Sequence record: OP172796.1
DNA: 64,000 bases
Direction: 5' to 3' (one strand)
From: Escherichia phage EF202P1
Shown here piece after piece: positions 12,879-13,226 of this stretch (position 1 is its first letter; every line of letters begins with the position of its first letter). A program made the translations under genes and the position numbers. The notes beneath the pieces are model-generated. The model worked only from the letters and a program-made list of their open reading frames with translations. It was not told the origin of the DNA and ran no database searches.

Positions 12879-13226
12879 ATGAAAACTTGTATTAGGTGCA
12901 AACTTAGCAAGGATGAAAATGATTTCTACATGAAAGATGGTAGGAGAACTCATTCATACTGTAAAAAGTGTGTTAATGAGCAAACCATAGAAAGACAAAG
13001 AGCACTTAAACTTTCAGCTATTGAGTACAAAGGTGGGGTTTGTCATGATTGTGGTAAAAGGTATCATCCAGCAGTGTATGACTTCCATCATTTGAATCCT
13101 TCAGAGAAAGATTTTAACATTGGTCATAGAAAAAGTCTTAAGTTCTCTCAGGAGCTAAAGAACGAACTTGACAAATGTGTTTTGCTATGTTCAAATTGCC
13201 ATAGGGTAAGACATGCAAAGTATTAG
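12879..13226 (+). CDS. HNH endonuclease (homing-endonuclease-like)
   Basis: Cys-rich protein with paired CxxC zinc knuckles and HH...N...CxxCH (DFHHLNP...CSNCHRVRH); GGAG RBS; start taken at ATG 12879 to avoid the tRNA overlap. Confidence 0.7.
   Translation: MKTCIRCKLSKDENDFYMKDGRRTHSYCKKCVNEQTIERQRALKLSAIEYKGGVCHDCGKRYHPAVYDFHHLNPSEKDFNIGHRKSLKFSQELKNELDKCVLLCSNCHRVRHAKY

Follow-up and report, generated by a model that had tools for sequence, protein, structure and literature searches.

The genes for F-TflI and F-TflII, as well as that for F-TflIV, are located in the tRNA region of phage T5. According to PMC5714182, which cites PMID 15456135 for these proteins, they are site-specific endonucleases, with F-TflIV placed among the HNH families. 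SegB is the free-standing homing endonuclease of the T4 tRNA cluster, known from T4 and T6, and it promotes the preferential inheritance of the tRNA region (PMC2330249, PMC13096335). Genes of the T4 MobE and I-TevIII type spread when their products cut the cassette-free allele, and in the process flanking markers are co-converted (PMC2790892, PMC2988022). In the group of phages that concerns us here, the 2010 genome paper on Felix O1 reported six HNH homing-endonuclease-like genes (PMC3185647).

The DNA analysed in this study, hereafter the window, is a stretch of 64,000 nucleotides from Escherichia phage EF202P1 (OP172796.1), a Felixounavirus. Its 5.6-kb tRNA region (11000-16600) matches 406 GenBank phage records, 206 of which span 80% or more of its length. 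Its identity to the corresponding regions of Felixounavirus phages such as KEP1, JN01, SP22 and Felix O1 is 94-98%. ARAGORN places 25 tRNA genes between 11178 and 16480, all on the plus strand, and leaves a gap between tRNA-Ile (12459-12534) and tRNA-Ser (13460-13549). This gap holds an HNH endonuclease ORF of 115 aa (12879-13226, plus strand), with its ATG at 12879 and its TAG at 13224-13226. An earlier, sequence-only reading of the window had placed this gene between tRNA-like genes, and it is indeed flanked by such genes at 12783-12864 and 13364-13446. It is the same gene, in the same position, as ORF45 of Felix O1 (NP_944866, "HNH endonuclease"), and its orthologues in Alf5 and Sf16 carry the annotation "HNH homing endonuclease". 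Having been annotated since 2010, the HNH finding is correct but already known. In the literature searched we found no functional study of the gene or of a close homologue.

A protein search returned 256 homologues at E≤1e-3, the best of them at 6.5e-72. The profile PHROG 2255, "HNH endonuclease", matches the protein over its full length (residues 1-114, E=2.3e-39), and comparison with the copies in FelixO1, heid and Sf16 gives dN/dS values of 0.066-0.13. On these three grounds the 115-aa ORF is a real gene and not a chance reading frame. It is under purifying selection, and a dN/dS near 0.1 speaks in favour of an active protein. The family is a large one, with at least 573 members in IMG/VR; within the window tblastn recovered just the gene itself and no paralogue.

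The 5' end of the gene has been annotated in two ways. In the GenBank records of heid, FelixO1, JN01 and GEP101 the CDS starts 15-17 codons too far 5', giving proteins of 130-132 aa, and the CDS of 393 or 399 bp in the FelixO1 and heid records matches this over-long start. The equivalent ORF of the window would begin at GTG 12828 and run from 12828 to 13226 (132 aa). When distant homologues are aligned they begin at MK.C, which identifies 12879 as the true start. A Shine-Dalgarno sequence read from the DNA, GGAG (12870-12873, plus strand), lies 5 nt 5' of this ATG and within the mobile cassette delimited below. Because the longer version starts inside the upstream tRNA-like gene and outside the cassette, it is very likely an annotation error. 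The sequence-only reading had also proposed that the upstream region of the HNH gene overlaps this tRNA-like gene; the overlap holds for the GTG 12828 start only, and the 115-aa ORF with its ribosome-binding site is clear of the CCA at 12862-12864.

What had been described from the letters alone as a small, Cys-rich HNH protein with paired CxxC knuckles is confirmed motif by motif in the 115-aa ORF. In an alignment of 51 family members (43-66% identity) C4, C7, C28, C31, C55, C58, C104 and C107 are invariant, as are H70-H71, K99, H108 and H112, and D68 and N106 are nearly so. The first four of these Cys residues belong to an N-terminal zinc knuckle or ribbon (12888-12971, plus strand). This is presumed to bind DNA, and in the structure model two strands, E16-19 and E23-28, lead into a long helix; several family members match zinc-ribbon Pfam families. 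The HNH (beta-beta-alpha-metal) core follows (13032-13217, plus strand), with C55xxC58, D68, H70-H71, D98-K99, C104xxC107-H108 and H112. The structure model is confident, it contains the beta-beta-alpha fold of the HNH / His-Me finger superfamily, and its top structural matches are mostly HNH nucleases. H70-H71 correspond in the alignment to the HH of the HNH domain in the group II intron maturase and occupy the place of the general-base His, and the last-H metal ligand and the CxxC...CxxC zinc site are represented by C55, C58, C104, C107, H108 and H112.

The protein departs from the superfamily at the structural Asn. Where McrA and the group II intron maturase have the N of "DN", the aligned residue here is the invariant Lys K99, in the motif ELDKCVLLC. 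The K99 codon is at 13173-13175 of the window, and the family motif around the invariant Lys is ELDKCVLLCSNCH. Judged from the alignment, the Asn-to-Lys change is a family-wide variant and not a lesion, and it probably explains the below-threshold Pfam HNH scores of most family members. The window protein scores 15.4 bits against PF01844 (HNH), short of the 21.4-bit cut-off (E=0.021), and 9 of the 51 family members match Pfam HNH at E≤0.01. Searches with the single protein were marginal (McrA, E=0.011, among PDB sequences) and those of NCBIfam returned noise; the family profile, when run against the PDB, gave a match at E=0.033 to the HNH domain of a group II intron maturase.

These marginal scores might be taken to mean that the protein is no endonuclease and is instead a zinc-finger nucleic-acid binder, for example a regulator of the tRNA operon or a tRNA-processing factor. 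The eight Cys residues in four CxxC pairs, the sub-threshold Pfam HNH match and the substituted Asn all point in this direction. We nevertheless hold this reading to be very unlikely, since conservation is complete or almost complete at the general base H71, at D68 and at H108/H112, nucleases make up most of the top structural matches, and the optional nature of the gene argues against a function in the operon. The sequence-only reading had named assignment to a non-nuclease zinc-finger family as the outcome that would count against it; the family found by profile search is PHROG 2255, an HNH endonuclease family. By its modelled fold and by its catalytic and metal residues, the protein is a predicted HNH-type nuclease.

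A second question is which kind of HNH nuclease it might be. The records of CRP22 and VpaE1_ev78 label the gene "putative endonuclease VII", and the paralogous ORF47 of FelixO1 weakly matches endonuclease VII PHROGs. T4 endonuclease VII also appears among the weak Foldseek matches of the window protein (1en7, E 0.62). These labels would make the protein a junction resolvase of the endonuclease VII type or an HNH protein associated with packaging, which seems to us scarcely credible. The Pfam scan of the protein gave no match to the T4 endonuclease VII family (PF02945), and the Foldseek E-values are in the range of about 0.6-6. Moreover, a resolvase or packaging factor would be expected in all relatives, whereas this gene is optional, and it does not lie beside terminase.

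The alignment of the window with momo, in which the site is empty, and with heid, in which it is occupied, delimits a cassette of 356 bp (12867-13222, plus strand) as the segment absent from momo. The cassette comprises the ribosome-binding site and the ORF alone; the flank supplies the TAG and the base that completes the final Tyr codon. The placement of the cassette can shift by 2 nt (TT), and the junction of the empty site in momo reads CCAAT/TTAGTTAGC. The cassette is lodged 2-3 nt past the 3' CCA of the tRNA-Arg(UCU)-type gene, and the same junctions were found in the IMG/VR and GenBank loci examined. On the other side lies a conserved non-coding stretch with hairpins (13223-13363, plus strand; it begins TAGTTAGCAGATT and has a fold z-score of -2.25), which is kept in every locus compared. 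The start of this stretch is the right junction for all cassettes at the site, and the stretch is partly replaced in phage LNA6. Terminal inverted repeats and a target-site duplication are both absent from the ends of the cassette, and a transposon or IS origin was rejected on this basis.

A sensitive nucleotide search found the HNH gene in 27 GenBank phage records, of which 25 are Felixounavirus (96-99% DNA identity) and two, Sf16 and ESh22, are Mooglevirus (84%). These carriers may be set against the 745 GenBank records with a match to some part of the locus; among the IMG/VR contigs that have the downstream anchor, the gene is present in 2 of 26. The same search of GenBank phage records revealed no degraded copies. 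The gene therefore shows presence/absence polymorphism at one intergenic site with exact boundaries, the pattern by which a homing gene is recognised. The comparison with relatives that the sequence-only reading had proposed thus bears out its claim of an insertion, with 27 carriers in GenBank and exact 356-bp boundaries, and the contrary outcome that it had considered, a gene kept at this position in all relatives, did not materialise, as most relatives lack it.

From these sequence comparisons, and by analogy with the systems described above, we think it probable (roughly 0.65) that the HNH gene is a free-standing homing endonuclease gene situated beside a phage tRNA-Arg(UCU)-type gene. In a mixed infection the cassette-free allele would be nicked or cut by the enzyme, either at the tRNA-Arg locus or close to it. 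Repair by recombination off the cassette-bearing genome would then copy the cassette together with a few hundred bp of flank, and the outcome would be spread of the HNH gene and a shuffled tRNA cluster.

The HNH gene is probably co-transcribed with the tRNA cluster, which lies on the same strand. Just 3' of tRNA-Ile there is a sigma-70-like promoter, TTGACA-17 nt-TATAGT (12550-12578, plus strand), identified by consensus match only (11/12), that likely drives the RNA genes downstream of it together with the HNH gene. It is the top consensus match of the tRNA region and is kept in heid, momo, FelixO1 and Sf16; the number of promoter-like sites in the region as a whole, 14 against a shuffled expectation of 13.1, is not above chance. 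Following this promoter is a conserved non-coding stretch of about 190 nt (12590-12782, plus strand). A part of it, about 12619-12743, recurs at 71-81% identity in Vi01-like Salmonella phages, in several Klebsiella and Escherichia phages and in Erwinia phages. Within the stretch the hairpin UGAGG-UCUUCCAAUC-CCUCA covaries with Sf16, and the Rfam matches are weak (tmRNA_permuted, 29.5 bits; tmRNA, 15.4 bits). This stretch may be an undescribed phage small RNA.

Several observations must be counted against homing, among them the sub-threshold Pfam HNH score, the Lys in place of the canonical Asn and the mosaicism of the tRNA cluster as a whole. In addition, the Mooglevirus copy of the HNH gene, at 84% DNA identity, has diverged to a degree close to that of its flanks, which leaves room for old inheritance followed by loss, or for transfer by ordinary recombination. 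In its full form this alternative holds that the gene is a non-mobile relic of a single ancestral entry, followed by loss and allele exchange, with the Asn-to-Lys change perhaps weakening the enzyme. The constant position of the gene would be accounted for, as would the divergence of the Sf16 copy at about the rate of its flanks, and recombination is pervasive in the tRNA cluster. Under this scheme, however, each loss would need to restore the identical empty junction. In addition, the lack of degraded copies in the search of GenBank phage records and a dN/dS of about 0.1 are hard to reconcile with a relic, K99 is invariant throughout a large and successful family and so is no private defect, and distant members hold an equivalent position next to tRNA-Arg in unrelated phages. 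For these reasons we judge the relic reading to be quite improbable and continue to favour a homing endonuclease gene.

Comparison of individual genomes sheds some light on how the cassette may have moved. Between the window and momo there are 0 SNPs over 12565-12866 and 1 SNP over 13223-13334, so that the two constitute a near-isogenic pair except for the cassette. The window and GEP101, which carries the HNH gene, differ by 2 SNPs and 1 indel over 12776-13560. This segment is bounded by blocks, at 12745-12775 and 13561-13586, with at least 14 differences from GEP101, and in these blocks the window matches momo or JN01. This looks like a patch of 0.7-0.8 kb that carries the cassette in another background, as co-conversion would yield, in a cluster that is mosaic throughout: the mosaicism produced by recombination extends across the entire tRNA cluster and is not limited to the neighbourhood of the cassette.

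The site itself, a few bases bounded by the CCA of the Arg gene on one side and by the conserved element TAGTTAGCAG on the other, occurs in four states. It is empty in most genomes; it may be occupied by the PHROG 2255 HNH cassette; in LNA6 (L005:613-954) it holds a gene for a 113-aa PD-(D/E)XK endonuclease (PF11645, E=1e-18); and in EcSzw-2 and four IMG/VR contigs it holds a tRNA-like insert of about 127 nt, which ends with a normal T arm, acceptor strand and CCA (loci L007, L017, L022, L029 and L033). The suggestion from the sequence alone that this is a hotspot of recombination and insertion is supported by these alternative cassettes at the same spot, together with the mosaic patch of about 0.7-0.8 kb.

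Two more PHROG 2255 genes, ORF44 and ORF47, are present in FelixO1 at other inter-tRNA sites (L003:1809-2294 and 4092-4505). EcoM2 has an ORF47-type gene (L129:4376-4789), and the window has neither. The proteins of these extra genes are 38-40% identical to the window HNH protein. The ORF47-type site corresponds to 14130-14136 of the window, between tRNA-Gly and tRNA-Thr. The ORF44 site is near the window's tRNA-Met (12381-12457), and in Felix O1 ORF44 takes the place between tRNA-Lys and tRNA-Ile, where no tRNA-Met is annotated. The combination of cassettes differs from phage to phage.

It was of interest to ask where members of the family reside in other genomes. Three distant homologues (51-66% identity), on unrelated contigs, are all within tRNA arrays. 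We collected 83 family loci from IMG/VR and Logan contigs, among which are some near-duplicates, so that the loci are not phylogenetically independent. A tRNA lies within 1.5 kb of the HNH ORF in 58 of the 83 and within 150 nt in 48. In 22 of these 48 loci the nearest tRNA is Arg(UCU), compared with 17 of 215 non-adjacent tRNAs (Fisher p=3e-9, an optimistic value given the near-duplicate loci). The cassette abuts the 3' end of the tRNA-Arg(UCU) gene in 17 of the 22, seven of them in tandem orientation, as in the window, and 10 convergent. Among cultured phages the family appears in 260 records from many hosts, and the annotated regions are mostly labelled "HNH endonuclease".

The gene abutted by the cassette in the window is of a different kind from an ordinary tRNA gene. 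This non-canonical tRNA-Arg(UCU)-like gene (12783-12864, plus strand) scores 31.7 bits with the Rfam tRNA model and receives no call from ARAGORN. Its acceptor stem is 7 bp long, its anticodon arm reads GCGGU-CUUCUAA-ACCGC, and it possesses a T arm as well as an encoded ACCA end. In place of the D hairpin, a 3-bp helix, CUC (12793-12795) paired with GAG (12822-12824), encloses the anticodon arm. The gene does not conform to the canonical cloverleaf in its D arm and variable region, as only 7 nt (UAUCUCA) separate the acceptor stem from the anticodon arm and 23 nt follow the latter. Thermodynamic folding of 12783-12864 was uninformative (z=0.04), so that covariation was needed. Across 10 sequences, paired cells make up 99%, and both sides have changed in 12 of the 20 pairs, compared with 2-4 in slid controls. 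The 3-bp helix also covaries, appearing as CUC/GAG, CAC/GUG, CGG/CCG (twice) and GCC/GGC, with divergent members brought in through a covariance model. This covarying helix implies that the D stem and the anticodon stem form one continuous hairpin, which is followed by a D-loop-like strand (UAAKUGGAGUAU).

In C600M2 and Sf16 the same locus carries a canonical tRNA-Arg(UCU). Compared with them, the gene of the window lacks 12 nt of the D arm and carries 17 extra nt behind the anticodon arm; no tRNA of the canonical UCU type exists in the window. Genes of this type are widespread. Copies that are 82-90% identical occur in the T5-like phages Sugarland and Kamaji, in E. coli phages of about 350 kb, in Mydovirus KB57, in phi92, in PD06 and in a Vibrio phage, and the total for the non-canonical gene is 262 phage records in GenBank plus 38 contigs in IMG/VR. 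In the genomes of 185,579 species of bacteria and archaea the core motif was detected on only one contig, from a metagenome-assembled genome, a distribution that marks the class as phage-specific. Other members of the class are at L034:407-489, L035, L036, L037, L124 and L125, and at L062:1843-1927 (minus strand), L048:1157-1233 (minus), L073:1888-1967 (plus) and L114:258-339 (minus). The anticodons of the class, UCU, ACG and UCG, are all those of Arg. Almost none of the matches listed is annotated in GenBank, and a few are entered as "tRNA-OTHER". The literature searched yielded nothing relevant on a published phage tRNA with this architecture; a prior description is possible. Thus 12783-12864 appears to belong to a phage-wide class of non-cloverleaf tRNA-Arg, with a fold that is backed by covariation.

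Nuclease genes of at least four families are found at the 3' flank of the non-canonical tRNA-Arg across phage lineages: PHROG 2255 HNH, PF13392 HNH_3 (in three lineages), PHROG 15137 and one weakly matched type. Their occurrence in other lineages indicates that this flank is a general landing site for nuclease genes. The distance from the tRNA-Arg to the nuclease gene is 8-25 nt in Sugarland (L139), Kamaji (L124), L144, L149, L136/L140/L143 and L146/L154. A common origin for the Sugarland HNH gene and that of the window was considered and rejected, the former being a PF13392 gene of unrelated sequence (BLASTP E=0.12).

The sequence-only reading had offered the insertion as an explanation for the atypical flanking tRNA-like genes. 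Here the comparison with relatives is decisive in the opposite sense. Both tRNA-like genes are unchanged in momo, which lacks the HNH gene; the upstream type is present also in unrelated phage families without this HNH gene; and in the Mooglevirus Sf16 the HNH gene adjoins a canonical tRNA-Arg(UCU). Since the atypical genes occur without the HNH gene, insertion is rejected as their cause. The link between nuclease and tRNA-Arg runs from the tRNA gene to the nuclease: canonical or not, tRNA-Arg attracts this and other nuclease cassettes. A combined proposal, that the PHROG 2255 HNH lineage is specialised on the 3' flank of tRNA-Arg and that the gene it abuts in the window yields a working non-cloverleaf tRNA-Arg(UCU), must be regarded as tentative, and we would put its chances below even.

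The second atypical tRNA-like gene, downstream of the conserved stretch (13364-13446, plus strand), has the acceptor strands GUGGGAC/GUCCCAU, G73 and CCA, and it too receives no ARAGORN call. Its top Rfam match is to tRNA-Sec, at only 23 bits. The anticodon stem reads AACGG/CCGTT in the window and, with covarying changes, GTAAG/CTTAC in Sf16 and EcSzw-2. The loop, CCUCCAAAA, holds CCA, which is Trp-like, and may be drawn either with 9 nt or, if a C-A mismatch closes it, with 7 nt. The gene has an irregular D region and is present in momo in spite of the absence there of the HNH cassette.

As a whole, the HNH gene is an ordinary homing-type cassette if our preferred reading is correct, and it mainly marks a hotspot at which the tRNA set of the phage is reshuffled. 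What seems worth following is the preference of the HNH family for tRNA-Arg and the adjacent non-cloverleaf tRNA-Arg. The preference for the tRNA-Arg(UCU) 3' end provides a concrete place in which to seek the target site of the enzyme. As for the tRNA, provided that it is charged and takes part in translation, it would represent a naturally occurring tRNA without a cloverleaf that works with the bacterial translation machinery, and its shape may perhaps reflect conflict with nucleases that target tRNA genes or cleave tRNAs.

A further parallel is with SegB. Like SegB, the window HNH gene is free-standing, lies inside a phage tRNA cluster, is optional and belongs to a family tied to tRNA genes. 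This resemblance raises the alternative that the nuclease has been domesticated or is beneficial to the phage, with SegB-like breaks that favour the inheritance or amplification of tRNA genes, perhaps as a means to keep ahead of host defences that cleave tRNAs, or exclude the markers of a co-infecting phage. As a precedent, SegB promotes both escape from Septu and the amplification of tRNA-Tyr, and a statistical association ties its homologues to tRNAs (PMC13096335); the PHROG 2255 family displays a similar association with tRNAs as well as strong purifying selection. On the other hand, the HNH gene is missing from most close relatives with the same hosts and is thus not required, and no tandem amplification of the tRNA region is seen in the window. 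As a replacement for homing we consider a SegB-like benefit unlikely; it is a live rival all the same, and one that is compatible with homing. A PHROG 2255 HNH nuclease acting in this way would represent a second system, besides the unrelated SegB, for nuclease-aided remodelling of tRNA genes in the face of tRNA-cleaving defences.

The favoured reading, that of a homing endonuclease gene, can also be placed beside the known systems in terms of differences. SegB is a GIY-YIG enzyme for which the cleavage site and homing have been demonstrated experimentally, whereas the window gene is of the HNH type and its homing is deduced. SegB has no isotype preference; the PHROG 2255 HNH family, in contrast, prefers tRNA-Arg(UCU). 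With T4 MobE and the I-TevIII type the window gene shares an HNH core and a location between genes, and it differs from them in architecture and in their nrd-gene context, with no match in sequence. Finally, the beta-beta-alpha-metal core and its CxxC...CxxC frame are those of EcoKMcrA, the Gme HNH nickase, the HNH domains of Cas9 and Cap5, and Hpy99I, and in the zinc-containing HNH structures, as in the window protein, the catalytic His ends the first strand.
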